Shown: positions 1,269 through 30,291 of the stretch, in pieces | Layout: each line of letters opens with the position of its first letter | Position numbering within the stretch: position 1 is the first letter of the stretch | Source: Candidatus Altiarchaeota archaeon | GTDB lineage: Archaea; SpSt-1190 | NCBI GenBank assembly: GCA_018221005.1 | Contig: JAAOXW010000015.1 | Location: forward strand, 1 to 35,940 | DNA: 35,940 nt | Direction: 5' to 3' | The notes under the pieces: generated by a model | Database searches by the model: none | What the model was told of the DNA's origin: nothing | What the model saw: the letters and a program-made list of their open reading frames with translations, nothing else | Translations under genes and position numbers: made by a program

Positions 1269-1913
1269 ATGTTGGACTTAGATAAGTTTGAATCAGATCG
1301 CCAAAATATATTTCTGCCTCGTTGGGACAAGCTAGAACAATACGTGGATCCGGAACAGTTATTTTTAGTAGGGCTAAAGTTGAAAGCGTCGACACTCGTG
1401 GATCTTCAGTTGCCCTTAAATCTTGAAATCATAGAAAATATGGATAAAAGTCTTCGCGATAGTCTTTTTGACGCCATTCCCTCTCTATGTGATGGGGGAG
1501 AAGCAAGAAGGGTTGTCTTTGAAACGTATAAACTCATTGGAGAAAAAATTCTTGACCCCATAAACAACATAGAAACTCCTGTGAAAGAAGGCCTTGTAAT
1601 AGCATATGCTGGAGTAATGTCACTTTTATTGGAATATCAATACTTACACGCCGAAGTTGAAGATGCCCATAACCAAGCGCTATGTGGTGTCAAGTATGGC
1701 CTTGAAATAAACGAGAACTTTGATAATTTTAATCCGAATATGCAAGCTGCATACGAAATAGTATGTGATCTTTACAAGGCAAGTGAGGACGGAGAACCCA
1801 AGGATATTGAAAAGATTTTTCAAGAAATACAATCTGCAGAAATGAACCAGATTCTTGTGGGCTCAAAAAAATTAATACCTTTTGGAGAAAGGACCGGGTC
1901 CCCATATAACTGA
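1269..1913 (+). CDS. hypothetical protein, paralog B of a tandem pair
   Basis: 214-aa ORF with an ATG start and its own TATA-like box. It is colinear with 591-1238. Confidence 0.65.
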   Translation: MLDLDKFESDRQNIFLPRWDKLEQYVDPEQLFLVGLKLKASTLVDLQLPLNLEIIENMDKSLRDSLFDAIPSLCDGGEARRVVFETYKLIGEKILDPINNIETPVKEGLVIAYAGVMSLLLEYQYLHAEVEDAHNQALCGVKYGLEINENFDNFNPNMQAAYEIVCDLYKASEDGEPKDIEKIFQEIQSAEMNQILVGSKKLIPFGERTGSPYN

Positions 1914-8996: not shown

Positions 8997-10358
8997 ATGG
9001 CGAAAAAAACGCACAGAGTTCTGTTATACTTGATGGTTGGGATTTTGCTCTACTCTCCCGGATGGGCCAGATTAACCATAATTGACGATTCGACAGGGGG
9101 GGACTGTCAACTGATTGGTAGTTGGAATAACAACACCAGTACCTGTACACTTAATGTGGATGTAACGGACGAAGTGCGAATCAACAGTAATGGAATTACA
9201 CTTGATGGCAATGGTCACAGTGTATCCGGAAGTGACGTTGGGGTTTTCGCAAGTGGGGTAGCACACATTGCGATAAGAAATTTCAGAATTTCAAATGTAA
9301 GCTATGGAATAAAACTCAGTGCAATAAGCTACAGCGACATACGGGGGAACATAATTATTGACGCGAGTGAAGAGGGAATTTACCTAAATGCACACAACAG
9401 CAACTTTACAGGAAACACGATTGTGAATACGGGTATTGGTATGAGTCTCAGTAGTTCGCGCCACAACTACATAGCGGGAAACAGTATTTCTGACAGTGAC
9501 TTTGCGATATACTTCTTCTTTTCAGACTTCAATAAAGTATATCAAAATGTTATCCGTAATAATGGGGAGGGGCTGTATCTAAACAGTGCCTCGGATAATT
9601 CAATATACAATAATAATTTTGTGAATAATGTTAACCAAAGTACCTACACAGGTTTTGCGAGCAATACCTATAATATGGCAGCCCCCATTGGAGGCAATTA
9701 CTGGAGTGACTGGACATCACCCGATTCAGATGGAGATGGTTTTGTTGACAGTGCCTATGTTTTTTCTGGAGGTCGAGATGAGCTACCCTGGACTATGATT
9801 GATGGGTGGGCACCCCCAGTGGCTGTAGATGCGGACGGGGATGGTTATGATGAATTGGATGATTGTGACGACAGTAATCCAGAAGTTAACCCAAGTGCAG
9901 AGGAAATTTGCGATAGTATTGACAACAACTGCGATGGGGTACTTGACCAAGTAGATAGTGACGGTGACGGAGTTAGTGATTGTTCCGTTGATAAGTGTCT
10001 TGGAACTGAAGATGAAGGCGCAGGGTGGAGGCGCTTACTTCCACGACACTATGCTGATGTTGACAATGACGGAATTTTTGAAACTCGGAAAGGTTGGAGA
10101 ACGCCCGCAACAGACAGTGATTATACTTTAGAGGACACATTAGGTTGCAACTGTGAACAAATATTAGAGCACTTCTCCGTGGGAAATAGATTTATGGCAG
10201 CCTTTGGATGCCCAAGGGGCGTAATGAGAACCTGGATTGCACAGAGCGGGTGGGCTAAAAGATACACGACCCTTCGAACAAGGGGTGGATTTGTGAAATT
10301 GAGTATGCCTTCTGAAATGTTTGGACTCACCCCACTTCTGTCAGGAATCCTTGAATGA
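8997..10358 (+). CDS. secreted NosD-like parallel beta-helix protein with a MopE-like Cys/Asp repeat (paralog 1)
   Basis: It has a signal-like N-terminus and ITLDGNGHSVSG, followed by repeated about 22-aa N/G/I-rich PbH1-type turns. GGNYWSDWTSPDSDGDGFVDSAYVFSGGRDELPW follows. Next comes DADGDGYDELDDCDDSNPEVNPSAEEICDSIDNNCDG, a putative metal-binding motif of the MopE type. The C-terminal 110 aa are shared with 10543-12006. Confidence 0.75.
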   Translation: MAKKTHRVLLYLMVGILLYSPGWARLTIIDDSTGGDCQLIGSWNNNTSTCTLNVDVTDEVRINSNGITLDGNGHSVSGSDVGVFASGVAHIAIRNFRISNVSYGIKLSAISYSDIRGNIIIDASEEGIYLNAHNSNFTGNTIVNTGIGMSLSSSRHNYIAGNSISDSDFAIYFFFSDFNKVYQNVIRNNGEGLYLNSASDNSIYNNNFVNNVNQSTYTGFASNTYNMAAPIGGNYWSDWTSPDSDGDGFVDSAYVFSGGRDELPWTMIDGWAPPVAVDADGDGYDELDDCDDSNPEVNPSAEEICDSIDNNCDGVLDQVDSDGDGVSDCSVDKCLGTEDEGAGWRRLLPRHYADVDNDGIFETRKGWRTPATDSDYTLEDTLGCNCEQILEHFSVGNRFMAAFGCPRGVMRTWIAQSGWAKRYTTLRTRGGFVKLSMPSEMFGLTPLLSGILE

Positions 10359-10542: not shown

Positions 10543-12006
10543 TTGTCTGATTGTATGGTGGATGTAACTTCAAAAATAATGGCGTTTCTTTTCGTTGGAC
10601 TTTTATTCTCAGTTCCTGCATGGGCAGCTTATTCTATTGTAGATGACGTAACGGGGGGAGCTTGCACAACTATTGGTACGTGGAATGCGGGAACCAAGAC
10701 GTGCACGCTCAACACAGATGTAACAGAACAAATTCAAATTGGTAGTAGTGGCATTGTACTTGATGGAAATGGTCACAGTGTGACTGGAAGCTCAGCTGGG
10801 GTGTCTGCAAGCAGAGTAACAGGTATTGTTGTGAAAAATCTCAAAGTCAGTGGCGCAACCAATGGAATTTTTCTAAATGGGAATTACAATAATATTACTG
10901 GGAATGAAATCGTAAATTGTGGTACGGGAATTAGTCTTAGTTCTGCAAACGACAATTTAATTTTTGAGAATAATGTTTCAAGCAATAACTACGGTATCTA
11001 TTTTTGGTCTTCTTCATTTAACCGAGTATACCGCAACACACTTGCAAGCAACACCTATGGGCTTTACTTGAATGGTGCTGCAGATAATGTAGTTTACAAT
11101 AATGATTTCTTAGGAAATACCAATCAAATTATTTACAGTGGTTATGCCAGCAATACCTATAACTTGGCTGCACCCGTTGGGGGAAATTATTTTAGTGACT
11201 GGAATTCTCCAGATACTGACGCTAACGGCTTTGTGGATTCGCCCTACACGTTTTCGGGCGGACTAGACAATTTACCATGGGCAACAATGACAGGATGGGA
11301 TTCTGCACCAGTAGATGCAGACGAGGACGGTTATGATGAAACGGTGGATTGTAACGACAATAATTCAACCATAAACCCAAATGCAACTGAAACTTGTGAT
11401 GGAATAGACAACAACTGTGATGGGAAGGTGGACGGAATTGATGCGGACGAAGACAGTTATACGGGAATTTGTGGGGATTGTAATGATACTAATTCAACCA
11501 TCAACCCAGGTGCAACTGAAAGTTGTGATGGAGTAGACAATGATTGTGATGGAACTGTGGATGAAGAGTGTGATGAGTGTAGTGATGATGAAGATGGCGA
11601 CGGCATTAATAATTGTGAAGACAAGTGCCCCGGAACTGAAACAGAAGGCGCTGCATGGAAACGACTACTCAATAAACGCTTTGCAGATGTTGATAACGAC
11701 GGCATCTTTGAAACTCGAAAGAAAAAGAAAGCGTCCATCATTGACAGCAAGTACAGTTTTGAGGATACCTTGGGTTGCAGTTGTGAACAAATCTTAGAGT
11801 ACATGCCCGGAAAAAATAAAGGTATGATGTCCTTTGGATGCACACGGAGCATCATGAATGCTTGGACCCATAAAAAGGGGTGGGCCAAAAAGTATGACTT
11901 TGAGTGGAAGGGCAAGTTCAACAAGTGGAAAGGGGACCACAAAGAATGGAAATGGAATCACAAAGGGAACAACGGGGATTCTGAAAAGTGTGATGATGAC
12001 GAATAG
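10543..12006 (+). CDS. secreted NosD-like parallel beta-helix protein with MopE-like Cys/Asp repeats (paralog 2)
   Basis: Same architecture as 8997-10358. It has two full DADEDxY...C(N/G)D.N..INP.ATE.CDG.DN(N/D)CDG repeats plus a third partial one. The track start is TTG 10543; ATG 10555 (MVDVTSKIMAFLFVGLLFSVPAWA) gives a cleaner signal peptide. Confidence 0.75.
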   Translation: MSDCMVDVTSKIMAFLFVGLLFSVPAWAAYSIVDDVTGGACTTIGTWNAGTKTCTLNTDVTEQIQIGSSGIVLDGNGHSVTGSSAGVSASRVTGIVVKNLKVSGATNGIFLNGNYNNITGNEIVNCGTGISLSSANDNLIFENNVSSNNYGIYFWSSSFNRVYRNTLASNTYGLYLNGAADNVVYNNDFLGNTNQIIYSGYASNTYNLAAPVGGNYFSDWNSPDTDANGFVDSPYTFSGGLDNLPWATMTGWDSAPVDADEDGYDETVDCNDNNSTINPNATETCDGIDNNCDGKVDGIDADEDSYTGICGDCNDTNSTINPGATESCDGVDNDCDGTVDEECDECSDDEDGDGINNCEDKCPGTETEGAAWKRLLNKRFADVDNDGIFETRKKKKASIIDSKYSFEDTLGCSCEQILEYMPGKNKGMMSFGCTRSIMNAWTHKKGWAKKYDFEWKGKFNKWKGDHKEWKWNHKGNNGDSEKCDDDE

Positions 12007-16725: not shown

Positions 16726-16790
16726 GGCTATCACGAGTCTTGCGGGACGAGTGATAGCCACCGTGGCAACTCTCCCGCAGGAGAAGTTGC
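16726..16790 (+). other. two hairpins in the tRNA-Arg trailer
   Basis: In B1, GGCTATCAC (16726-16734) pairs with GTGATAGCC (16751-16759) around an imperfect GTC-ttgcgg-GAC tip. B2 is GCAACTCTCC-cgca-GGAGAAGTTGC (16766-16790), with 10 bp and a 1-nt bulge. Confidence 0.55.
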
Positions 16791-16802: not shown

Positions 16803-18746
16803 GTGCTCGCAAAAAACATAACTAAGCCCGCTACGTATCCTTCTGTGGGCAGATCTACTATACACTACATGCTTCCCGTCTACTTGATGTTCTTCTCATT
16901 TTTCTCAACAATAGTAGGTCTAAAGATATCACAAGTGTTTACTTCTCCTGAAATGTTCATAGATAGTGCGGCCCATGCTGCCGCAACTACAATTGAAAAT
17001 GTTTGTGCAGATGTTTTTGTAGAAAAAAATATTCCCTCACCCCCAGTGAGGAGTCAGTACCAAATTTCGCGTTGTGATGATGTTGCGGCGCGGACTACGG
17101 TGGGTGCGATATGGTTGGCGGCAGATGTTGCAGATCTTGCAAGTTCATTTCGTCGCGGTGGAATTGATGATTCTGCAGAAGCTACTACAACTGCCCTAAA
17201 TGTTATTGACTCGGGTGGCGACGCAACCCAAGCAATAAAAAAAGCCCTCAGTGCATCCTCAGGTGCCTCCGATGAATTAATACAAAATGGTAGAAAACTG
17301 TCTGCAAAAGGTGGTGAGGCGGGAAAAATTGGGGATGACTTGGTGGACTCGGGAGAAGAAATGAGATTAATACTTGACAGCCCTATGCTGAGTGATGATA
17401 TGAAAGTAATCGAGATGGCACAATACCATGAAAATGTAAAAGATGTCCTTAATTTACTCGAAACCCTTGAAGATGCCAATAGTGTAATGAAAGGTGTTTC
17501 ATTCACAAAATATCTTGTGCGAGATGGGGTTTATTTCTCAGGTAATATAATAAATAAGATTCGAGTGGTATCAAGAGCACCAAAAAGAGCGGTTGTGGCC
17601 ACTCGGCGTGTGGAAAGACCCATTGTTCATGCAACCCAATTCTTAATCTATAATATGGACTTCCTCCCCCTTGTAAACTTAGCACTTCCCACTCTCGAAG
17701 ACCTAAGTATGATTGTAAATGTTCTGAAAGGCCCGCACGTTGGGGTTCAGATATATCCACTAGTTGTTTCTTTGTTCAACATTAGTGATTTTGAGGCATT
17801 CAAGCCTTTCTCGGGCAGGGCTGCGAATATAAGTATAAAATACAATGAGTATGCGGCAGCCAATAGAACTGAGATGATTAGCTTACTAAAAAACCTAAGA
17901 TACTATTCCTCCGCAAACACTGTAAATTCCTTGAAGAATGAGGATATTTTTCCCCTGAGACGCGGAGACTACGTTTCCAGAGATTTAGTATACAATTTAT
18001 TTATCGACTTTGAAGAGCAAGTTGAAACCTACAAAGATAGTGGAAGTCTCTCAGTAGAGGAAGCAAATACTCTGTTGGAGGCTTCCGACGACTTACGATT
18101 TGAAATAATAAACACATCTTCTGATTTTGAAATGATTCGAGAAGAAGTAGGAAGTTGGAGTGTGAACGGTCTAACGGGTGGGCTCCTTGCACTAATGGGG
18201 AGTTTACAAGAAATAAGTGATGGACTTGAAGACATTGCAATGGAGTGGGAAACTTTTCAGAAAGAAGTAGGTCAGCATGTTGTAGGTGAGGGGGATTGTA
18301 ACGCCATAGACTTGTTATCAAGAGCCCCTGAATTGTCAGAACATTATTCCACTCTAAAGGTTGCAGACTGTGGTGTTGTTTTTGATTGTTATCCTGAAAG
18401 TCAGTGCATTGTTGGACTCCCTGTTGTTGAAGCAAACCCATGGATTCCATATTTACCCGTAGATGTACTTGATGCTAGTGAGATTGCAGAAGTTTCAACT
18501 TTAATTGGTTTTAGTTATGGGGCGGATACCAAGACCATGTCAACGGGATTCCTCAATACGTGCATGGGTAAGACTAAAGTTTTGGTATGTGCAAAAACGG
18601 GGGTCTTCAAGAGTTGTAGGGTAGTTGATTGTGGCAAGGAGTTAAACATAGAGTGGGAGTACAACCCAACCATTAAAGTTTCTAGTTCTGAAGACGGGGA
18701 CGGCAACCCAACGGTCACCGTAAAGGGTAACTTCTTAGAATGGTAA
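16803..18746 (+). CDS. large hypothetical membrane-anchored/secreted protein
   Basis: 647-aa ORF with a GTG start; ATG 16869 is an alternative. One N-terminal hydrophobic helix, LPVYLMFFSFFSTIVGLKISQVF, is followed by an Ala/Asp/Ser/Gly-rich segment. The C-terminal third contains Cys. I recognise no family. Confidence 0.6.
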   Translation: MLAKNITKPATYPSVGRSTIHYMLPVYLMFFSFFSTIVGLKISQVFTSPEMFIDSAAHAAATTIENVCADVFVEKNIPSPPVRSQYQISRCDDVAARTTVGAIWLAADVADLASSFRRGGIDDSAEATTTALNVIDSGGDATQAIKKALSASSGASDELIQNGRKLSAKGGEAGKIGDDLVDSGEEMRLILDSPMLSDDMKVIEMAQYHENVKDVLNLLETLEDANSVMKGVSFTKYLVRDGVYFSGNIINKIRVVSRAPKRAVVATRRVERPIVHATQFLIYNMDFLPLVNLALPTLEDLSMIVNVLKGPHVGVQIYPLVVSLFNISDFEAFKPFSGRAANISIKYNEYAAANRTEMISLLKNLRYYSSANTVNSLKNEDIFPLRRGDYVSRDLVYNLFIDFEEQVETYKDSGSLSVEEANTLLEASDDLRFEIINTSSDFEMIREEVGSWSVNGLTGGLLALMGSLQEISDGLEDIAMEWETFQKEVGQHVVGEGDCNAIDLLSRAPELSEHYSTLKVADCGVVFDCYPESQCIVGLPVVEANPWIPYLPVDVLDASEIAEVSTLIGFSYGADTKTMSTGFLNTCMGKTKVLVCAKTGVFKSCRVVDCGKELNIEWEYNPTIKVSSSEDGDGNPTVTVKGNFLEW

Positions 18747-18754
18747 GGCACACC

Positions 18755-19054
18755 TTACTTTGGTGAGTCGCCCATAATCTTCTTTTTCAAATCATCAGAC
18801 AATCTGTCGGGTGTCCATACAGGGTCAAATACAAGTTCAACTTCGGGCTCAAATCCGGCTTTCTTCACTTCCTTTTCCACATCCCCCGTTATTAACGAAC
18901 TGAGCGGACACATTGGTGTTGAAAGAGTCATCTTGATGTGTGCTTTCTTATCTTTCACTTTAACCTCGTATATGAATCCCAAATCGACTATGTTCACCCC
19001 TAACTCAGGGTCCAAAACTTCCTTCAATGCTTTCATTACTTTTTCTTTAGACAT
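18755..19054 (-). CDS. DUF59 (SufT/MIP18-type) Fe-S assembly-related protein
   Basis: MSKEKVMKALKEVLDPELGVNIVDLGFIYEVKV...HIKMTLSTPMCPLSS...VELVFDPVWTP matches the DUF59 pattern. AAGGAGTGA lies 5-13 nt upstream of the ATG (SD-like). The track ORF 18755-19459 is trimmed because its upstream part runs through the tRNA-Ser gene. Confidence 0.75.
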   Translation of the reverse strand: MSKEKVMKALKEVLDPELGVNIVDLGFIYEVKVKDKKAHIKMTLSTPMCPLSSLITGDVEKEVKKAGFEPEVELVFDPVWTPDRLSDDLKKKIMGDSPK

Positions 19055-19111
19055 CTTATCACTCCTTGCTTTTTGGTCGAGGTTTTTGCACCTTGCGGGG
19101 TGGAAAAAGCT

Positions 19112-19192
19112 CGCCAGGAAGGGGATTTGAACCCCTGATCCCAGAGGGACTCGCTTTCGAGGCGAGCGCCTTAACCACTCAGCCATCCTGGC
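19112..19192 (-). tRNA. tRNA-Ser (anticodon CGA)
   Basis: The reverse complement is GCCAGGATGGCTGAGTGGTTAAGGCGCTCGCCTCGAAAGCGAGTCCCTCTGGGATCAGGGGTTCAAATCCCCTTCCTGGCG. The acceptor stem is GCCAGGA/TCCTGGC and the anticodon stem is CTCGC/GCGAG. The loop CTCGAAA gives anticodon CGA. It has a 13-nt long variable arm (class II) and the T arm AGGGG-TTCAAAT-CCCCT. Confidence 0.85.
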
Positions 19193-19210
19193 AGGTGTTG
19201 TTGGGCAGGG

Positions 19211-19234: not shown

Positions 19235-19285
19235 CAAACCCCCGAAGGGGTTTGTTTTGATCAAACTCTCCTGCGGGAGAGCTTG
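19235..19285 (-). terminator. two stable hairpins immediately 3' of the giant gene
   Basis: On the reverse strand, CAAGCTCTCC-cgca-GGAGAGTTTG (19262-19285) starts 1 nt after the TAA. It is followed by CAAACCCC-uucg-GGGGTTTG (19235-19254), an 8-bp stem with a cUUCGg tetraloop. Whether they act in termination or in processing is not established. Confidence 0.45.
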
Positions 19286-19286
19286 T

Positions 19287-22200
19287 TTATTTGAACTGTC
19301 TGTAGTAACCCTTAAACTGCCCGCCCTGACGGTTGTAGTAACCTCGATTATATCCAGACCCATAATACCCTTGCAGGGGCATTCGGTAGGGATTGGTCTT
19401 CTTGACCTTTGAGAAAAATAACTTCCATACACTGAAACCCACACCCAAGATACCTGCAATACTCACTAAAAATTCAAAGGGTTCAAAGATAGTCCCATAA
19501 AGCTCACTCCCCTTAAACAAAGCAAGTGCATCCGCAAAGAAATTAGAAGATTTTACTACAACGGCTATTGTTCCAACATTTAAATCACCTGCTTGACTGC
19601 TACTAGCCAGAACATTAATATTATACGTTCCTTGGCTGCTGGCCTTGGCTCTTATTTCAATATCTTCAAATTCACCCGGGCTCAATTGCTTTCTCTTACT
19701 CCCCAACCAATTGGTTTCAATGCCTGCTGCAATTAAATCTAAATCTACAATCATGGGGACGTTACCTGTGTTTTCGATTGTGAAAGTCACAATCCCATAT
19801 TGACCAATTTTTATATCGTCAAAATTAACTTCGCTCACTGAAAGACTGCAAGTACAATCATTCGGGCTGTTCTCACAAGTTTCTCCCAAAACTAAATCAC
19901 ACTGTCCATTGTCTGAACAAGTATCTGCAGAACAATCAGAAAGACAAATTGAACATTCACCCTCTTCACAGACATTGTTGCCACATACATTAGCAAAGCA
20001 TCCCCGAGAATCTGATTGTGGGCTTGTGGGATTGCAAGATGCACCATAACATGAACAGTCACCACTGTTCTGGCAAGTCTCACCAATTAGAGTGCTGCAT
20101 GTGCCATCATCAATACATTGATCGAGAGTGCAGTCCTCCGTGCATGCGGAACACTCTCCAACTTGGCAAACACCATCCCCGCAACTTTCTGGAGTTTTGC
20201 AAACACTGGTTGTATCATCACAATAAAGGCCTGAACTGCATAATTCGCCACAAGCACAAACTTGTCCGCTTGCAAGTGGGGGGGAGCAGAGTCCCGCCCC
20301 AGAACAGAAGCCTGTTGGGCAAGTAGTTCCACACGCCAAATTAGCTTGGGCGCATTGTCCACCATCGCATACACCTTGGGTACAGTCATTGCTTGCAACA
20401 CAATCATCATCACTCATGCACGTTCCACTAAAAATTCCTGCGGAGGTACACATCAAACCCTCCACGTCCTCACCAAAATTATAATCAAGTCCACACTTCT
20501 TACAAACTCCTTCAGAGCAGGCACCGGACATGATATCGCAAAAGGTTTCACTCTCGATTGCCCACCCATTGTCAGTGCAGTAATAGACTTGACCTGCAAC
20601 GGTCATTGATTGACATAGATTGTCTGTAGTACACTCCACCCAAGTGCCTTGTGAACAAATAGTTCCTTCTTGAAGACCAGAATCAAAACATCCCGCATCC
20701 CAGCATTGTCCATAGTTACAGCAACCACTCGACTCCGCAGGGCCTTGAACGAGGGTGCTTCCAACAAAGAGGGAATTGTCCTGCCAGTTGTCTTGGTGGC
20801 AGTAGTAAGTAGTTGCCCCAATATCTAAAGAATCACAAGCGATTGTGCACATTTGTGCTCCGCCGTCTGCACAAGCATAAGTGCCATTAATTTCAAATTC
20901 GTCCTCTGCGTTATTTCCACAGCAGGTTGTGAGGTCAGTTTCACCTACCCAGTCCTTGCCACAGACTTCTTCACACATAGTTCTTGAGGTATCCCCTTGG
21001 GCTGCACACTCCTCATCTTCCCAAACTTCACCGTTGCAGATGAATTTGGTATCATCTCCATTTATGTTAAGGACTAAGTAGGTGTCCGGTGTTGTGCAAA
21101 CGTTCCAAATAGCGTCATCACTCAAGTATTCATTGAAGTATGTGCCTTTATTGCCGGTGGCAGAGTACCAGATATTATTGTGGCATAGTTCATTTCCATC
21201 CAAACCTTCATTAGCAGAGTAACAGCAAGCACCGTTCCAATCGTATGCTTCGGCTTCGCAAGCACCCTGACAACTGTCTATGGAGAGGGTTTGGGGTGTC
21301 CAGATGGAGCTGAGGCAGTAGTAGGTTTCGGCTTCAACATTTATGGTTGATGAACAGGAAGTTCCTGAACAGGTTTTTGGTACTCCATTCTCACAGGCAG
21401 CTCCTGTGGGCTCGCCATTAAGATAGGGAGTAATGTCATCTCCGGTTTCACAGCAGCCATTGTTTATCCATGACTTACTGCAACCAGTGCAATAATCCTC
21501 CCCAGAATCCAAACTGTGGGGCTCCCAGACCAACTTGCCACGTGTAAGATAAGTGACACATTTAGATGTGTTGTAGTTGTTCCCATTGAAGCAGCTCTGA
21601 TAAGAAGAAGTAGAATGTGTAGCTGAAACTTTGGTTTCGCCAGATAAGTAATATTCTGTAAGTTGCGTTGGTGAAACGCAAGTATCCTTGAATTCTATTT
21701 CGGAATCACAAACACCAGCGGTGCATTTCCCAGATGCTTCAATAACCTTGCCCGCCCTAAAGGGTTGATTTCCAATGTCTCCCACTTCTGAGGAACTTGA
21801 GCATGTCACCTCGTTCGCAGTATCCCACTGAGATCTTCCATATGTTGTGCTATACACACATTGAGTTTTTTCGCCGTTGCCATGGCAGCCCCAACTTCCT
21901 TTGTAATGGGTGCTGACACCATCTGGACAATAGTTGGGATCTGAGCAGACATAATTATTGTAATTCAGTTCAGCCACACATTTTTCACTGTAGCAATTTA
22001 AGTCTTGAGTGCAATCCTCTCCGTTTTTCAAAAGCCACTCACCGCAAGTTACAGAATCTCCAATCTTACAAACGTAAGTTATGCCGCTGACCGTGACGTC
22101 ATCATTGCCATCGTAGCACAGGTCCCCATAAACACAAGCCGATGTTTTGCCTTGAAGCTCACAATACTCAGAGTCGGAACTACAACCAGGAATTCCATCA

Positions 22201-23447
22201 CAAAAGCATTCTGTTCCAAGACCTCCTGTCGCTTCCCATACACCATCCACACAAGTGTAACCGCCACAGGTCTTCGCACCCCCAATAAGTTCAAGTCCGG
22301 AAGTACATTCTTTTATGGTTCCCAAATCACAACAAAAACTACCATCAACAACCCCACTTTCATCTGAATTGCAACAATTTATGGTGCTGGCCAACCATTC
22401 ACCTGTGCTAAGGCATGTGCATGCCGTTGGACTTAAATCTGAATTGGCGGTCCAAGAGCCAGAATTGCAAAACAAATCATCTCCAAAATTTTCGCAGCTT
22501 TGGTCGCCATAACAAGTGCTGCTATATACACAATCATCACTTCCAGCACAACAAGCGTCGTCATTAGAATCAGGAGAGCAACCGCCAGAACAGGCTCTGC
22601 TCAACCAATATTCACTTGCGGCATTACCACAACAAGCATCAGTTCCAAAATATTTGATACCTTTATCACCTAAAGTTTGGTCAGTGCAATCCTCACAAAC
22701 ACTTCCCGCATCTTCGGCACAATCACTACATGCATTAGAGGAAGAAGCCCATCCAGAGGATGAACAGTAGTACGTCCCTTCATCAGTACCCAAATCAATA
22801 GTCATTTCACTGCAAGTATATAATGAATAAGTGCAAGGCTTTGGTTGGCCTGAATTGCAACCATAGTATATTGAGTTGTAAACGCCATCTTCCAAATAAT
22901 AGTCCGTAGTATCGTCACAACACGCAGTTCCTGTCCACGTTTTTCCTTCGTCGACGCAGGCAGCGGGACAACTTTCATGAACATTATCTGCAGATACCCA
23001 AGCGCCGGAGTAACAGTAGAGCTTTACATCTGCGGTAACGGAATCACAGTCCCCTTTTTGAGTTCCTTTGTCAGCAACACCACAACTGTAAAGTGTTCCG
23101 CTCGCACATGCATATTTTCCGGTGTGAAAACTTCTTGAACCTGAACAGGTTGCCCAAACGGAATCAAAACAAAAGTAAGGGCCAGCAGCCCAAAGCTCAC
23201 CAATAAACGTGGCTTCGTTTTGAGACTCACAAACGGGACCTCCCGCAGTATCCGTACAAGTCATTGAAATTCTGTCATCGTCATAAATTACGCTTGGGGC
23301 ACAATCGATAGAACAATCCTCGGAATCGCACTCATCTGCACAGTAATAGCCAGTTTTAGGAAAACAATCAAAAGAGAAACCAATTTCCGTAAACAAACCA
23401 AAAAAGAACACTAAAAACAAAACGGAGAACACAGCTTGCCTTTTCAC
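19287..23447 (-). CDS. giant Cys-rich modular surface protein with a C-terminal TM anchor
   Basis: 1386 aa with a GTG start, 25 nt from a TATA-like box. The signal-like N-terminus is MKRQAVFSVLFLVFFFGLFTEIGFS. By my hand count there are 138 Cys, all within aa 28-1200. CC-containing and (T/V)YYCxxxxW motifs recur. A CARDB-like beta-sandwich segment (VNFDDIKIGQYGIVTFTIENTGNVPMIVDLDL...) is followed by the TM helix FLVSIAGILGVGFSVWKLFF and a Gly/Tyr/Arg tail. Confidence 0.85.
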   Translation of the reverse strand: MKRQAVFSVLFLVFFFGLFTEIGFSFDCFPKTGYYCADECDSEDCSIDCAPSVIYDDDRISMTCTDTAGGPVCESQNEATFIGELWAAGPYFCFDSVWATCSGSRSFHTGKYACASGTLYSCGVADKGTQKGDCDSVTADVKLYCYSGAWVSADNVHESCPAACVDEGKTWTGTACCDDTTDYYLEDGVYNSIYYGCNSGQPKPCTYSLYTCSEMTIDLGTDEGTYYCSSSGWASSSNACSDCAEDAGSVCEDCTDQTLGDKGIKYFGTDACCGNAASEYWLSRACSGGCSPDSNDDACCAGSDDCVYSSTCYGDQSCENFGDDLFCNSGSWTANSDLSPTACTCLSTGEWLASTINCCNSDESGVVDGSFCCDLGTIKECTSGLELIGGAKTCGGYTCVDGVWEATGGLGTECFCDGIPGCSSDSEYCELQGKTSACVYGDLCYDGNDDVTVSGITYVCKIGDSVTCGEWLLKNGEDCTQDLNCYSEKCVAELNYNNYVCSDPNYCPDGVSTHYKGSWGCHGNGEKTQCVYSTTYGRSQWDTANEVTCSSSSEVGDIGNQPFRAGKVIEASGKCTAGVCDSEIEFKDTCVSPTQLTEYYLSGETKVSATHSTSSYQSCFNGNNYNTSKCVTYLTRGKLVWEPHSLDSGEDYCTGCSKSWINNGCCETGDDITPYLNGEPTGAACENGVPKTCSGTSCSSTINVEAETYYCLSSIWTPQTLSIDSCQGACEAEAYDWNGACCYSANEGLDGNELCHNNIWYSATGNKGTYFNEYLSDDAIWNVCTTPDTYLVLNINGDDTKFICNGEVWEDEECAAQGDTSRTMCEEVCGKDWVGETDLTTCCGNNAEDEFEINGTYACADGGAQMCTIACDSLDIGATTYYCHQDNWQDNSLFVGSTLVQGPAESSGCCNYGQCWDAGCFDSGLQEGTICSQGTWVECTTDNLCQSMTVAGQVYYCTDNGWAIESETFCDIMSGACSEGVCKKCGLDYNFGEDVEGLMCTSAGIFSGTCMSDDDCVASNDCTQGVCDGGQCAQANLACGTTCPTGFCSGAGLCSPPLASGQVCACGELCSSGLYCDDTTSVCKTPESCGDGVCQVGECSACTEDCTLDQCIDDGTCSTLIGETCQNSGDCSCYGASCNPTSPQSDSRGCFANVCGNNVCEEGECSICLSDCSADTCSDNGQCDLVLGETCENSPNDCTCSLSVSEVNFDDIKIGQYGIVTFTIENTGNVPMIVDLDLIAAGIETNWLGSKRKQLSPGEFEDIEIRAKASSQGTYNINVLASSSQAGDLNVGTIAVVVKSSNFFADALALFKGSELYGTIFEPFEFLVSIAGILGVGFSVWKLFFSKVKKTNPYRMPLQGYYGSGYNRGYYNRQGGQFKGYYRQFK

Positions 23448-23466
23448 ATAAAATCTAAGCTTCGGC

Positions 23467-23477
23467 GGTATTTTTAC
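23467..23477 (-). promoter_or_regulatory. TATA-like box for the giant gene
   Basis: The reverse strand reads gtaaaaatacc, centred about 25 nt upstream of the GTG at 23447. Confidence 0.45.
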
Positions 23478-23483
23478 TTTACT

Positions 23484-25739
23484 CTAGGTTGAAATCTGGG
23501 CTGTCTGGAATCTTCCTTTACTCTCAATCAAGTAAGGTAAATATTTAATTGATTTGAAAGAAGAAGCAACCCTGTTTGCAGCGTAAGCTGTCATTGCCGG
23601 ACCTACTGCAAAGAAGGCGTACGCCCCCTTTGTGAGCTGTGTGGCGGCATTAAGTGCTTTTTCTGCCACGGGAACCTCGGCCATTGCTTCTGACAAGTCT
23701 AGTTGGTACTCTTTCTGGAGGCCGTGTAATCTTTGTATTTCATTCAAATGACCTGCGAGAACTTGCTGGTAGGTTGCAATTTCAGACAAATCATTCACAA
23801 CATTCTGGCTTTCAATGTTGAAATCATTAGCGAGATTGTATTGCTCAAGGGCCGCCTCGTATTGTGCATAATATCTGTTGATGTACTCATCGCTCGTAAT
23901 GCCCATGTCCTCATAAAGATATCTTGCAAGAGCATATTCATTCACTGGCGCATCCGGATCGAGGGTGTTTAAAGTGTCTGGATCCATGTCTATTTCACCA
24001 TCGTTATCCAAATCCCAGTCTTCAATATAATCCAGTAAGCCATCACCATCCATATCCATTTTTTCGAGCCCCAACTCATTCCAAGTCACATATGTACCCT
24101 GAAGGTCTGCTTGAACTTGTTCAAAGGCAGTTTGAACTTCATCAGAGTAAGTGGTGTACATTGCCATTGAGTCTTGGTCATTAATCTGCCAAATCACCTT
24201 ACCATCACCGTCTTCAACAAAGGTAATGTCAGTAACTCCGTCATTATCCAAATCCCAATCGCCATTTTCGGTGTCAGGAACCCACTCACCATCAACTTTC
24301 TTTAATTTGTAGTCTGCTTTTCCATCGCCATCACTATCAATGAAGAGATTGTCAATAGTGTCCATGATTTCCATTGCGGCTTCATATTTGGCGTGTGCTA
24401 CGAGCCAGTCACCATATTTCTCATTTATTAACGGATCGGTCGTAATGCCCATATCTTCAAATAAGTATCTTGAAAGCGCTTCTTCATTTACGGGCGCATC
24501 CGGATCGAGGGTGTTTAAAGTGTCTGGATCCATGTCTATTTCACCATCGTTATCCAAATCCCAGTCTTCTTCATAATCAATCAGGCCATCTCCATCAATA
24601 TCAGCAACCGCCATGAATTCTGCCATGTAAGTATCATATTGCGCCACTAGGTCTTCGTGCCTTCCGGCACTAATTTCTGCGAGTAGTCGGAGTCTGCCCC
24701 CAGTACCCGAATATTCATCACCTAATTCTTGTTCGGCTAAATCCATAATACCTTGGACTCTTTGAACTTCCGCCTGGGCACCATCATATACACCTTGAGC
24801 CAACATCATTCGTCTCCAAGTGACCCACCATGCAACGGCTGCTGCACCCAGTCCAAAAATAACTGCGGGAACAACTGCCTTCCATTTGACTTTCTTTTCT
24901 TTCTCAAGCGCTTTAACCATGAGTTTCTTATTACCAAGAGGAATCTCACCATAGTTAGTCAGTTGGTCGATTTCACTCTGCATAGTTCCAAGGACTGAAT
25001 TCGCAAGAATTCCTGCTGCATCGCTTTCATATGAAAAAATCACATCGGGAGTTCTACCTGCATTCACAGCAGCTCTAAATTCATCATTAAGTAAAGTGTA
25101 AACATCAGTTCTTGCGGCTTTTTCAAGAGAAAATATTTTATCCTGAACTTTTTTAGTTGTCTTATAACTTTTCAAAAAGTCCTTTCTCAATTTTTTATTG
25201 AAGTCTTGAATCTCCCCTTTGAGCTTACTGATTTGCCCCCTCATCTTCTTGCGGGCTTTTCTTTTGGCCCCCCTCTTTTCAGGAGTATCAATCCACTCAG
25301 AAAGAATTTTCTTATTTTTGGTCCTAAGTGTCTGGAAATATGTGTTTATGTCGCTCTTTAGTTTCTGTCTCTGACCTTCGCCTTCGGTGAGAGAGTGATT
25401 AAGTTTCCCAACTAACTTATCATCCAAAAGCTGGAAGTTGAGCACATATGCGTCTTTTTCAAGAACTTCTGCAGTCTCAGCCCTTGAGTCTTTCAATGAA
25501 AGTCGATAATCTTTATTTTTCAACTCGCCAACCAAACGCCCTTCGGGGCGTCCAGACCACTTATTTTCTATGGGGTCCATGAGAATTCCTTCATCGAAAT
25601 CAAGCTCTTCTTGTTTGAAATGTGCTGCAATTGCAGGATCAATGTTCCTCCAAAAAAGGTTGGCAAAGTAAAAATCAGAATATTGTGCAGTCTCACCGGG
25701 TCGAGTAGTTGCCCTGTGCGTCTGTGTAGTTACCGACAT
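23484..25739 (-). CDS. two-TM coiled-coil protein with extracytoplasmic EF-hand/TSP3-like calcium-binding loops
   Basis: 751 aa. The N-terminal part is Lys/Glu-rich and coiled-coil-like. TM1 is AVVPAVIFGLGAAAVAWWVTW. The following 390-aa Asp-rich domain has DIDGDGLIDYEE (canonical DxDxDGxIxxxE), DLDNDGEIDMD, DSDGDGKADY, DLDNDGVTDI, EDGDGKV and DMDGDGLLDYIE. TM2 is GAYAFFAVGPAMTAYAA, near the C-terminus. Confidence 0.8.
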   Translation of the reverse strand: MSVTTQTHRATTRPGETAQYSDFYFANLFWRNIDPAIAAHFKQEELDFDEGILMDPIENKWSGRPEGRLVGELKNKDYRLSLKDSRAETAEVLEKDAYVLNFQLLDDKLVGKLNHSLTEGEGQRQKLKSDINTYFQTLRTKNKKILSEWIDTPEKRGAKRKARKKMRGQISKLKGEIQDFNKKLRKDFLKSYKTTKKVQDKIFSLEKAARTDVYTLLNDEFRAAVNAGRTPDVIFSYESDAAGILANSVLGTMQSEIDQLTNYGEIPLGNKKLMVKALEKEKKVKWKAVVPAVIFGLGAAAVAWWVTWRRMMLAQGVYDGAQAEVQRVQGIMDLAEQELGDEYSGTGGRLRLLAEISAGRHEDLVAQYDTYMAEFMAVADIDGDGLIDYEEDWDLDNDGEIDMDPDTLNTLDPDAPVNEEALSRYLFEDMGITTDPLINEKYGDWLVAHAKYEAAMEIMDTIDNLFIDSDGDGKADYKLKKVDGEWVPDTENGDWDLDNDGVTDITFVEDGDGKVIWQINDQDSMAMYTTYSDEVQTAFEQVQADLQGTYVTWNELGLEKMDMDGDGLLDYIEDWDLDNDGEIDMDPDTLNTLDPDAPVNEYALARYLYEDMGITSDEYINRYYAQYEAALEQYNLANDFNIESQNVVNDLSEIATYQQVLAGHLNEIQRLHGLQKEYQLDLSEAMAEVPVAEKALNAATQLTKGAYAFFAVGPAMTAYAANRVASSFKSIKYLPYLIESKGRFQTAQIST
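23947..24023 (-). repeat. 77-bp perfect intragenic direct repeat, copy 2 (protein order)
   Basis: Identical to 24493-24569. It encodes EDWDLDNDGEIDMDPDTLNTLDPDAP. Confidence 0.85.
24493..24569 (-). repeat. 77-bp perfect intragenic direct repeat, copy 1 (protein order)
   Basis: Identical to 23947-24023. The offset is 546 bp (182 codons, in frame). Confidence 0.85.
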
Positions 25740-25759
25740 ACAAGCTCACACAAGTTCAA

Positions 25760-25772
25760 CTTATAATATTTT
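25760..25772 (-). promoter_or_regulatory. TATA-like box for the 751-aa gene
   Basis: The reverse strand reads aaaatattataag, centred about 27 nt upstream of the ATG at 25739. Confidence 0.45.
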
Positions 25773-25799
25773 CCCGACTTAGGAAGGGCAAAGAAGGCC

Positions 25800-26039
25800 T
25801 TATTCCTTGTATTCAATAACTTTTGGGGCGTTCATAGCCTCGTAACACTTATCAGAAATTTCAAGATCGGGGTGTGCATAAGGCTTGGCCTCAACTTCCC
25901 CATTTCTTTTCACAACATTTACGAGTCCATCGTCCAGAATGTTAATGGAATTAATGTCGTTTGCAAAGGCACAGTAGCTACCTGGTTTTTCAGCATACTC
26001 GCCGCTTGAAAGCTCCTTTGTCATGTATATCCCACACAT
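25800..26039 (-). CDS. hypothetical small protein
   Basis: 79-aa ORF. It starts 7 nt after the stop of the 279-aa gene, with aaggga just upstream, so the two are probably co-transcribed. I recognise no motif. Confidence 0.45.
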   Translation of the reverse strand: MCGIYMTKELSSGEYAEKPGSYCAFANDINSINILDDGLVNVVKRNGEVEAKPYAHPDLEISDKCYEAMNAPKVIEYKE

Positions 26040-26046
26040 AAGTCCC

Positions 26047-26886
26047 TTATATTTTTTTACGTTTCAGTAATTTCTTGAATTCTGAGCCCAAGTGAGGGGT
26101 GAATCTTCCCTCAGAAAGCTCGTAAACACCGAAGTTAAACCCATTTGGAGTTGGAACCACCCCAACATAAACCGTCGCAAGATTGAACCTATCCAATAGG
26201 TCCTTTGGTTCTGGCGTAATCTCCCTCTCCCTAAAGCCAACAACAACTCCTGATTGATTACGTCCCAAATATGGATAGGCCCGCAAGGCGGGCTTCAAGT
26301 AGTAATCATATATTTCACTTTGTTGTAGGTCGTCCAAGTGGCATTCCCTTGTCCACTCAGGCATATTTCTGCTTGGGGCTATCTTCATATCGTAGCCATC
26401 AAATTCAGCGGTAAATAAAGTCTTTACTGGAAATTTTAAAGAGGAGATGTCATGAGTTTTTCCGCGGGCGCTTCCCTGTCCATCAAGAATATCATAAATT
26501 TCATTATGTGATTGTGCTTGAACCAAATCCCTAAGAACTTTTCTGGCGTCCGGTATTGGTAAATTAGATTTCAATATGTTATAATCAGTCACACCATCCA
26601 AGCTCTCAGAAAGTCTTTCAAAATCAGGCAAAGTGGTGTGTGAAACAATGGTCTCTTTCAAAGTTATAAAATCCTCAATGTCCATAAAATAATATACCAG
26701 ACTCATTTCGAGTTTGTCCTCAATTTCATTGCAGTAAAAACCCTGAGGCATCGCCCTTGCAGAAGCAGGAAGGAAGGCTTTGTGTAAATGAAGCGCAGGT
26801 ACATCTTCTGAATCAACCCCTTGCTCTTCGGCAATGAAGTAGGTGGGTCGCTTAGTACCTTTTGGCATTTTGATAAACGTGGGCAC
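26047..26886 (-). CDS. hypothetical cytoplasmic protein
   Basis: 279-aa ORF with a GTG start, 23 nt from a TATA-like box. It has no TM segment and a basic C-terminus (KKLLKRKKI). I recognise no family. Confidence 0.6.
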   Translation of the reverse strand: MPTFIKMPKGTKRPTYFIAEEQGVDSEDVPALHLHKAFLPASARAMPQGFYCNEIEDKLEMSLVYYFMDIEDFITLKETIVSHTTLPDFERLSESLDGVTDYNILKSNLPIPDARKVLRDLVQAQSHNEIYDILDGQGSARGKTHDISSLKFPVKTLFTAEFDGYDMKIAPSRNMPEWTRECHLDDLQQSEIYDYYLKPALRAYPYLGRNQSGVVVGFREREITPEPKDLLDRFNLATVYVGVVPTPNGFNFGVYELSEGRFTPHLGSEFKKLLKRKKI

Positions 26887-26901
26887 TTCAGTATGAGGGC
26901 G

Positions 26902-26915
26902 TGTATACTATAAAA
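26902..26915 (-). promoter_or_regulatory. TATA-like box for the 279-aa gene
   Basis: The reverse strand reads gttttatagtatac, centred about 23 nt upstream of the GTG at 26886. Confidence 0.45.
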
Positions 26916-27054
26916 CTATTACTATCGAGAGGTAGAGAACAAAAGGGGTAGAACTCCAGAGGTCAATCAGGGGTAGAAGTATTAATGCTATTCGTAAGAA
27001 GTTGGGGTTTGCAAAAAGGGGTTTATTGATAGCTCCTGAACTTATCCATTGTGC

Positions 27055-27190
27055 TTAAACTGGGATTAATCAGGTATAACATGGGCATAACTGAGATTAA
27101 CCACGTATAACTGGGACTAACTGGCCTAAACTGGGATTAACCATGTATAACCGGGGTATAACTGAGATTAGCAAGGCATAAACAGGGATC
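27055..27190. repeat. 13-unit degenerate tandem array with about 10.25-bp period (TAAC-YRGGR-type units)
   Basis: Units start at 27056, 67, 77, 88, 98, 108, 118, 127, 138, 148, 159, 169 and 179. Examples are TAAACTGGGAT, TAACTGAGAT, TAACCACGTA, TAACTGGGAC, TAACCATGTA and TAACCGGGGTA. There is also a higher-order repeat of about 61-71 bp: 27057-27117 against 27128-27188, about 50/61 identical. Confidence 0.8.
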
Positions 27191-27300
27191 TCTGGACAAA
27201 AAAGTTTATTAACCTTCCACGTCCCACCATTACATAAAATCCCTGAGGTGGCCTTCGGGCCATTCTCAGGCCCTATTTTCAATAATTAATTTAATTATGT

Positions 27301-29283: not shown

Positions 29284-30291
29284 TTAACAGATGCACATCT
29301 GCCTCTTACCAATCTCAAGAGTCCGGTCAGTGACAGGAACACTCTCATCCTTAGGTACCTCATAAATTGCACGAATAGCATCAATGTTGTCAGGCACCAC
29401 AATGGACTCTTGGTGGATGGCTTGAGAAAGGTATATTTTATTGCCATCCACTGTAAAGCCCTTGAAAACCACACTCTCAAAAATGTCGGAGCGAACGCGA
29501 AAGTCACGTGCAAAATCCACTATTTGTGCAGTTGATTTGAAACCAAGCGCAGGGTCTGCTAGTAAAATGCGTGGCTCATCCATAATAGCTTGAATCAAAT
29601 CACCTTCAGTCAACTGCTTCTCAGTTTCAATATACAAGTCATGGGTATGCATGATGGTGGAAGGTACCTTCCAAGCTGTTGTAAATAAATTTACATCCAT
29701 TACAGTCTTTACGTCAGGGGCGTGGTGCGAAATTCCAATTGGGTCAGGAACTATGGCATCAATGGGCCCCTTCTTATACTCCTTCGGATCCGCCGCACGA
29801 CGAATCAGGGTTGCATTGCAGAGCTTAATGCCAAACTTGCTCTGTACCAAGTGAAGAAGCCGGGATAGGCCGGTGGTGTTACAGCTCACCACACGCAAGA
29901 ATTTTTGGCCCATGGCTTCCTCATAGTTGGCGTTGGCATTAAATGACATGGATATGGTTGCCTTTTCGGCCCCTTGAAAAATAGCAGGCTTCCCCGCAGG
30001 AACATAAAATTTATCCTTATTCTCCTGACCATACTTCTTTGGTGCACAGTCAACAAGAATATCTGATTCATCAACCAATTCAGCAACAGAACCCTCAACC
30101 TCAATACCTGAGCCCTCAAACCGGGACTTGTCCATGCAGAAGAGTTTGTGATGGCGGTGTTTGGCAATGAGCGCCCCATAATCTGGGCTGTTTTTTACAA
30201 CACCCACTAACTTCATATCTTTTTGCAGTTCAACCGCATCGGCCACCCTGCGTCCAATCGTACCATATCCAACAATTCCGACTTTAATCAT
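29284..30291 (-). CDS. gap: archaeal type-II glyceraldehyde-3-phosphate dehydrogenase
   Basis: It has MIKVGIVGYGTIGRRVADAV and the catalytic VVSCNTTGLSRLL. The length of 335 aa is typical of archaeal Gap. The start overlaps the pgk stop by 4 nt. Confidence 0.9.
   Translation of the reverse strand: MIKVGIVGYGTIGRRVADAVELQKDMKLVGVVKNSPDYGALIAKHRHHKLFCMDKSRFEGSGIEVEGSVAELVDESDILVDCAPKKYGQENKDKFYVPAGKPAIFQGAEKATISMSFNANANYEEAMGQKFLRVVSCNTTGLSRLLHLVQSKFGIKLCNATLIRRAADPKEYKKGPIDAIVPDPIGISHHAPDVKTVMDVNLFTTAWKVPSTIMHTHDLYIETEKQLTEGDLIQAIMDEPRILLADPALGFKSTAQIVDFARDFRVRSDIFESVVFKGFTVDGNKIYLSQAIHQESIVVPDNIDAIRAIYEVPKDESVPVTDRTLEIGKRQMCIC

Follow-up and report, generated by a model that had tools for sequence, protein, structure and literature searches.

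Four adjacent orphan genes on an Altiarchaeota contig: probably a lineage-specific patch of three transcription units rather than one conserved envelope system

The window considered here is a stretch of 35,940 nucleotides (nt) of contig JAAOXW010000015.1 (assembly GCA_018221005.1) from the Candidatus Altiarchaeota archaeon SpSt-1190, in which four adjacent reverse-strand genes (19287 to 26886), encoding proteins of 279, 79, 751 and 1386 amino acids (aa), had been put forward as a single undescribed cell-surface system. In the account favoured here, which is given a probability of roughly 0.6, the block is a lineage-specific chromosomal patch of three ordinary transcription units and does not constitute one conserved system. 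Adjacency proved to be the sole positive evidence for a four-gene system; at least three transcription units are discernible, and both envelope genes and unassigned genes are frequent throughout the contig. The co-localisation check proposed in the original prediction turned out unfavourably, as the 279-aa and 751-aa proteins are without homologs and the only locus found to contain a relative of the 1386-aa protein (referred to as the giant hereafter) is devoid of the other three. The further notion of a module shared by small-genome archaea is contradicted by the lack of relatives.

The first of the three units would be the giant gene, the product of which is predicted to be Sec-exported and C-terminally anchored, with a Cys-rich mosaic ectodomain knotted by disulfides or metal; it may serve as an adhesin or a surface-coat protein, of which reduced-genome archaea would carry many fast-evolving versions. 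The second, the 751-aa gene, would encode an N-in membrane protein with a basic helical domain in the cytoplasm and an acidic ectodomain whose six DxDxDG loops are presumed to bind Ca2+, the product probably being a Ca-stabilised envelope scaffold or adhesion protein. The third would be a bicistronic pair comprising the 279-aa and 79-aa genes, soluble orphans seemingly tied to the others by adjacency alone, and we infer that this unit is independent of the other two. Export, Ca2+ binding and an adhesive or structural role are predictions made from the sequences; on the same footing, the giant and the 751-aa protein are most likely lineage-specific envelope proteins. The genes, promoter-like boxes and bounding elements of the block are as follows, in gene order.

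27053..27194, unstranded: repeat array, flanked by the divergent promoters of the 279-aa gene and of the neighbouring NYN gene
26909..26915, minus strand: TATA-like box TTTTATA, 22 nt upstream of the GTG of the 279-aa frame (26886)
26047..26886, minus strand: open reading frame (ORF) of the 279-aa soluble orphan, GTG start, defined from ORF and translation
25800..26039, minus strand: ORF of the 79-aa acidic soluble orphan (74 aa if started at Met6)
25761..25768, minus strand: TATA-like box TATTATAA, 21 nt upstream of the ATG of the 751-aa frame (25739)
23484..25739, minus strand: ORF of the 751-aa membrane protein, ATG at 25739
23469..23476, minus strand: TATA-like box TAAAAATA, 21 nt upstream of the GTG of the giant (23447)
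19287..23447, minus strand: ORF of the giant, a 1386-aa Cys-rich surface protein with predicted type-I anchoring, GTG at 23447
19235..19281, minus strand: two GC-rich hairpins and a trailing T/A run, minimum free energy -28.3 kcal/mol, z = -4.8
19111..19193, minus strand: tRNA-Ser(CGA), bounding the block

The four co-oriented reverse-strand ORFs were recovered exactly where the original prediction had placed them. Under a codon model trained on the contig’s 17 family-assigned genes, all four gave in-frame scores of -3.90 to -4.06 per codon, similar to those of known contig genes, while the other five frames of each scored clearly more poorly; the four ORFs are thus real and native-looking genes. 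The 279-aa gene is annotated at NCBI as a 273-aa version starting from the ATG at 26868. Comparison of the window with the sole public run containing DNA of this contig (run X1) revealed eight differences between 17000 and 29500, arranged in pairs 6 or 12 nt apart, with four of the eight falling inside the giant gene and two inside a 647-aa orphan gene. All eight are synonymous third-position changes, a pattern that consistently, if at few sites, points to purifying selection. The run is labelled ‘METAGENOMIC RNA-Seq’; given that its depth is flat at ~7.8 across genes, spacers and both strands, it represents a DNA library.

The division of the block into units is founded on its transcription signals. 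In the first genes of transcription units on this contig, a TATA-like box typically ends 20-22 nt before the start codon, a distance that implies leaderless mRNAs, and genes internal to operons instead carry GGAGG- or GGTGA-like sites. Boxes of the leaderless type precede the 279-, 751- and 1386-aa starts, in agreement with the caveat, attached to the original prediction itself, that at least three transcription units are present; the last of these boxes lies within the 36-nt spacer 3' of the 751-aa gene. The 7-nt spacer reported between the 279-aa and 79-aa ORFs was also verified, and inspection of the sequence upstream of the 79-aa ORF found no TATA-like box at leaderless distance. Since the 79-aa gene lacks a separate promoter and begins 7 nt past the end of the 279-aa frame, the two are probably co-transcribed. 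The spacers between the four ORFs measure 7, 60 and 36 nt in gene order and no terminator-like site was found between the genes on the minus strand, so that read-through is possible; in particular, the transcript of the 751-aa gene may extend into the giant gene. The strong hairpins and the tRNA described at the far border were both confirmed, and the hairpins probably mark the end of the giant gene’s transcript. A palindromic hairpin, CTCTCCCGCAGGAGAG, occurs twice in the window (16770-16789 and 19262-19281, 90% match over 20 nt), with one copy downstream of a tRNA-Arg gene and the other between the end of the giant gene and tRNA-Ser; the genome may use it repeatedly as an element of the terminator type.

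The original prediction could name no family for any of the four proteins, and none emerged here, as scans of Pfam, NCBIfam, PHROGs and PADLOC gave no above-threshold match and searches of PDB sequences returned chance-level matches only. In a word-indexed search of 5.8 billion proteins, the 279-aa and 751-aa proteins each retrieved only the query itself, and the giant retrieved itself and one match to a single module. A full HMMER search of the 279-aa protein against 1.84 billion representatives likewise found only itself, JGI metagenome contigs contained no match to it, and an exact-sequence look-up of the 751-aa protein returned no record. The 79-aa protein is the sole member of its 90%-identity cluster. 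No hydrophobic transmembrane (TM) segments were detected in either the 279-aa or the 79-aa protein, and a GNAT-like reading of the C-terminal half of the former was discarded, its PDB match having E = 1.3 only and nothing else supporting it. AlphaFold2 models built from single sequences reached a mean predicted local distance difference test (pLDDT) score of 36.4 for the 279-aa and 36.5 for the 751-aa protein, low values which are attributable to the lack of alignments for these proteins.

The giant had been described as a Cys-rich anchored surface protein, and this description fits the sequence: a signal-like N-terminal segment, 138 Cys residues (10%) and a C-terminal TM segment are all present. 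The N-terminus is hydrophobic over aa 1-29 and signal-like as judged by hydropathy, not by a dedicated signal-peptide predictor. Together with the large ectodomain, the single C-terminal TM segment and the short cytoplasmic tail, likewise assigned by hydropathy, it gives the giant the layout of a type-I anchored protein. Beyond the TM segment lies a 40-aa basic tail rich in R, G and Y, and no NCBIfam match to the archaeosortase signals PGF-CTERM and PEF-CTERM was obtained in a protein that has these 40 residues past its TM segment. The ectodomain is a mosaic of Cys-rich modules with internal repeats (aa 144-195 with aa 710-761, and aa 684-725 with aa 858-897), its principal elements being the following.

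22395..22649, minus strand: Cys-rich module of ~85 aa (CCGxxxxEYW...DDACC...CVY...CY...CNSGxW), aa 267-351, 39-46% identical to three aligned copies in the archaeal protein P0004
19848..20183, minus strand: two tandem CGxxVCxxGECSxCxxDC modules, aa 1089-1133 and 1155-1200, 54% identical
19587..19850, minus strand: candidate Ig-like (immunoglobulin-like) beta-sandwich, membrane-proximal, aa 1200-1287, sub-threshold matches
19410..19490, minus strand: C-terminal TM anchor, aa 1320-1346, Kyte-Doolittle score 1.87

The ~85-aa module, for which there is no Pfam family, is the sole part of the block with relatives elsewhere. P0004, a 1753-aa archaeal protein ending in a C-terminal Laminin_G_3 lectin domain, is encoded on ENA scaffold ANAN16-1...scaffold_3682 (locus L001, 10001-15262) and carries 7-8 profile matches to the module as compared with the single copy in the giant. 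Giant Cys-rich anchored archaeal surface proteins of this type are like the giant of the window in size, Cys content and module mosaic; unlike P0004, however, the giant has no Laminin_G_3 domain, and the rest of its 1386 residues are without detectable relative. The P0004 locus adjoins pilus-type T2SSE and T2SSF genes together with archaeal housekeeping genes, contains no counterpart of the 279-, 79- or 751-aa proteins, and shares nothing with the neighbourhood of the block. The membrane-proximal segment of ~90 aa that follows the CGxxxCxxGE-type Cys modules weakly matches the Ig-like domains of the CARDB and choice-of-anchor D type. Its scores, 19.5 bits against choice-of-anchor D (E = 0.0011) and 14.1 bits against the HYDIN/VesB Ig-like domain (E = 0.055), are far under the respective curated cut-offs of 45 and 25.5, and its membership is therefore only a candidate one.

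The description of the 751-aa product as a two-TM coiled-coil protein with Ca-binding loops fared unevenly. One clear TM helix is present (Kyte-Doolittle score 2.04), whereas the second proposed helix, C-terminal at aa 702-726, is weakly hydrophobic with a score of 0.84. The claim of a coiled coil was not upheld, heptad periodicity in the long helices being weak (P = 0.036 over aa 86-150, P = 0.58 over aa 156-226). These helices are predicted in the N-terminal 285 residues, which are basic (18.6% K+R), from AlphaFold2 secondary structure only, at a pLDDT of 36. The Ca-loop claim was borne out as a sequence feature by six DxDxDG loops, where 2000 shuffled sequences gave 0.15 on average and never more than 3. 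They lie in a very acidic ectodomain (24% D+E) that also harbours an internal duplication of ~105 residues (aa 361-469 versus aa 543-644, ~70% identity), traceable in the DNA as 23878-24056 versus 24424-24602 (85%). Two regions of the gene can be delimited as follows.

24816..24884, minus strand: strong TM helix, aa 286-308, the single one in the protein
23808..24659, minus strand: Ca-loop region with three pairs of DxDxDG loops, at aa 380, 394, 468, 496, 562 and 576

The six paired 12-residue loops, of the form D-x-D/N-x-D/N-G, recall EF-hand-like loops, TSP3 repeats and the dockerin F-hand, and the first loop of each pair (DIDGDGLIDYEE) resembles the canonical EF-hand loop. None of the corresponding Pfam models reaches its threshold in this protein: EF-hand_1 matches weakly (E = 0.02, 14.9 bits, cut-off 25.4), and the TSP3 and dockerin models do not match. 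The setting of the loops is also different, since they occur here in the ectodomain of an anchored archaeal protein with a large cytoplasmic helical domain. We know of no described family that combines a Ca-loop ectodomain with a large cytoplasmic helical domain. A weak resemblance (36% over 64 aa, E = 0.004) exists between the third Ca-loop segment and one of the MopE regions of two NosD/beta-helix paralogs located elsewhere in the window (8997-10358 and 10543-12006, plus strand, 46% identical), which are arranged in tandem, carry MopE-type metal-binding motifs and are predicted to be secreted.

The orphan character of the block is best considered against the position of the organism. With the GAPDH gene (29284-30291) as an anchor, a search of 185,579 species representatives gave two ‘Candidatus Altiarchaeota’ metagenome-assembled genomes as the nearest (L002 and L003), both at 66% identity, followed by Thermoproteales at below 50%. 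The loci of the two genomes have no further gene in common with the window, and a scan of JGI metagenomes yielded no GAPDH relatives above 53% identity. By this measure, the organism is placed on a very thinly sampled branch of a DPANN/Altiarchaeota-like lineage. With a glycolytic enzyme such as GAPDH sharing only 66% identity with the closest relative on record, rapidly evolving envelope and accessory proteins can be expected to escape detection; the orphan status of the four genes is a sampling effect and not evidence for a new kind of system. Within Nanoarchaeota populations, no gene class is more diversified than the hypothetical cell-surface proteins (PMC6142677), and Altiarchaeota are known to build lineage-specific surface structures, the hami, from proteins that have no counterparts in pili or archaella (PMC4460559); the orphan surface genes of the block fit both observations. 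The altiarchaeal hami and archaeal S-layers resemble the envelope proteins of the block in being lineage-specific envelope structures made of secreted proteins, the former in the phylum of the nearest genomes. The subunit of the hamus is itself S-layer-like, with a beta-sandwich structure (PMC4460559). No S-layer family of Pfam or NCBIfam was matched by any of the four proteins, the comparison with the hamus being by description only.

The contig itself supplies a further baseline. Nine of its ~30 genes are unassigned, and a run of four or more unassigned genes arises in 10% of random gene orders (P ~0.10), so that the run observed here is not unusual. The contig also encodes, at scattered positions, at least seven envelope or secreted proteins other than transporters, namely the two NosD/MopE paralogs, an FG-GAP protein whose C-terminus bears a TM segment, a lipoprotein-like protein of 177 aa, the 647-aa orphan, the 751-aa protein and the giant; with envelope genes distributed in this manner, two standing side by side are unremarkable. 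The 647-aa orphan (16803-18746, plus strand), which converges on the block across the tRNA, has one N-terminal hydrophobic segment and no family, and is a candidate for another lineage-specific envelope protein.

Several points weigh against the three-unit account. The absence of homologs supports the independence of the units no more than their cooperation, and homology searches for the 79-aa protein covered family, PDB, plasmid and viral sets only. The genes are co-oriented and separated by tight spacers of 7, 60 and 36 nt with no terminator-like site in between, and one long read-through transcript is possible. A known fold could also be hidden in any of the proteins, given models at a pLDDT of 36.

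The best-surviving alternative, although an unlikely one, is that the four genes form one trans-envelope apparatus, in which the cytoplasmic domain of the 751-aa protein would be the target of the two soluble proteins of 279 and 79 aa, its Ca-loaded ectodomain would hold or position the giant, and expression would be controlled by the upstream repeat array. Co-orientation, short spacers and the lack of intervening terminator-like sites speak for such an arrangement, as do the predicted locations, which together span cytoplasm, membrane and exterior, and the phyletic pattern common to all four, each being found only here. This shared orphan pattern, however, is to be expected at the GAPDH divergence noted above, and a run of four unassigned genes has a P of ~0.10. 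The three separate promoter-like boxes, the impossibility of demonstrating co-occurrence, and the absence of the partners from the sole related locus (L001) also argue against it. Were the four genes nevertheless to cooperate, they would reveal a novel means by which a little-known archaeal lineage builds or regulates its attachment surface. A more specific and more doubtful version would have the block as a private attachment apparatus of a deep-branching Altiarchaeota-like lineage, switched by a factor on the six phased TAACTGRGATTAA boxes upstream, with the 279-aa and 79-aa proteins acting on the helical domain of the 751-aa protein and the Ca-loaded ectodomain docking or presenting the giant; it is considered improbable.

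Less probable again is a remnant mobile element or provirus beside tRNA-Ser, for which the array would represent iterons or an origin, the 279-aa protein an initiator, and the surface proteins cargo or receptor-binding proteins. The tRNA-Ser directly at one border, the six phased boxes adjoining the first gene and the orphan status of every gene in the block would accord with such an origin. Against these stand the absence of any integrase, capsid, Rep or other mobile family in Pfam, PHROGs and PADLOC, and the lack of matches in IMG/VR viral contigs (279-, 79- and 751-aa proteins), in phage records (279-aa protein, tblastn) and in plasmid records (79-aa protein, tblastn). A repeat scan moreover found no direct repeat at the borders and no duplicated, att-like tRNA-Ser fragment at the other end of the block, and the GC content and codon usage equal those of the rest of the contig. 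In view of the missing integrase and att repeats and the absence of foreign composition, the mobile-element explanation was rejected. The least probable proposal, that the 279-aa and 79-aa ORFs are decaying or spurious frames beside two envelope genes only, can appeal to their lack of relatives and of a confident fold and to their ambiguous starts (GTG at 26886 or ATG at 26868 in the first, Met1 or Met6 in the second), but is very hard to reconcile with in-frame codon scores as high as those of known genes and clearly above the other five frames, with the well-placed TATA box, with the calling of each gene by independent gene finders (two sources), and with 840 nt free of stop codons at 41% GC in the 279-aa ORF.

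Returning to the preferred account of three ordinary units, the block chiefly illustrates a known pattern, in which the surface proteins of poorly sampled archaea and their neighbours evolve fast and appear orphan, and it follows that adjacency alone should not count as a system. Three of its components may nonetheless be of use to others: the ~85-aa Cys-rich module common to archaeal giants, the membrane protein whose ectodomain bears paired DxDxDG loops, and the repeat array with its six boxes, which is a candidate for a regulatory site.

The last of these lies in the 414-bp non-coding region that was said to bound the block at its upstream end, and both the region (26887-27300) and the array within it (27053-27194) are real. 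The array consists of a 71-nt unit in tandem duplicate (76% identity), each copy bearing three 13-nt TAACTGRGATTAA-like boxes at a spacing of 31, 20 and 20 nt, so that on the minus strand GTTA returns at intervals of ~10 nt. The box is all but confined to the spacer, with five matches there as against 1.3 expected across the whole window. A reading as non-coding RNA was dropped, there being no Rfam match to the array or the 414-bp spacer. The array shows no single-strand fold (z = -0.18) and is a candidate multi-site operator for a DNA-binding protein. In the same spacer, ~30 nt upstream of the NYN start, a GC-rich hairpin (27242-27273, CCTGAG..GGCC-CGAA-GGCC..CTCAGG) is flanked on both sides by T-rich runs, and could be an operator, the terminator of a short transcript, or a chance occurrence.

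Other features of the window lie outside the block. On the far side of the tRNA-Ser, a 99-aa FeS_assembly_P (DUF59/MIP18) gene (18755-19054, minus strand, Pfam E = 3e-20) is preceded by a GGAGTGA ribosome-binding site and is nested within a mechanically called 234-aa ORF that crosses the tRNA gene. Near the beginning of the window, two paralogous orphans of 215 and 214 aa without a Pfam family are found in tandem (591-1238 and 1269-1913, plus strand, 49% identical). Lastly, GC skew is positive up to ~19 kb and negative thereafter, switching with the coding strand at the convergent point near tRNA-Ser; bias between coding strands is a more probable cause than a replication landmark.

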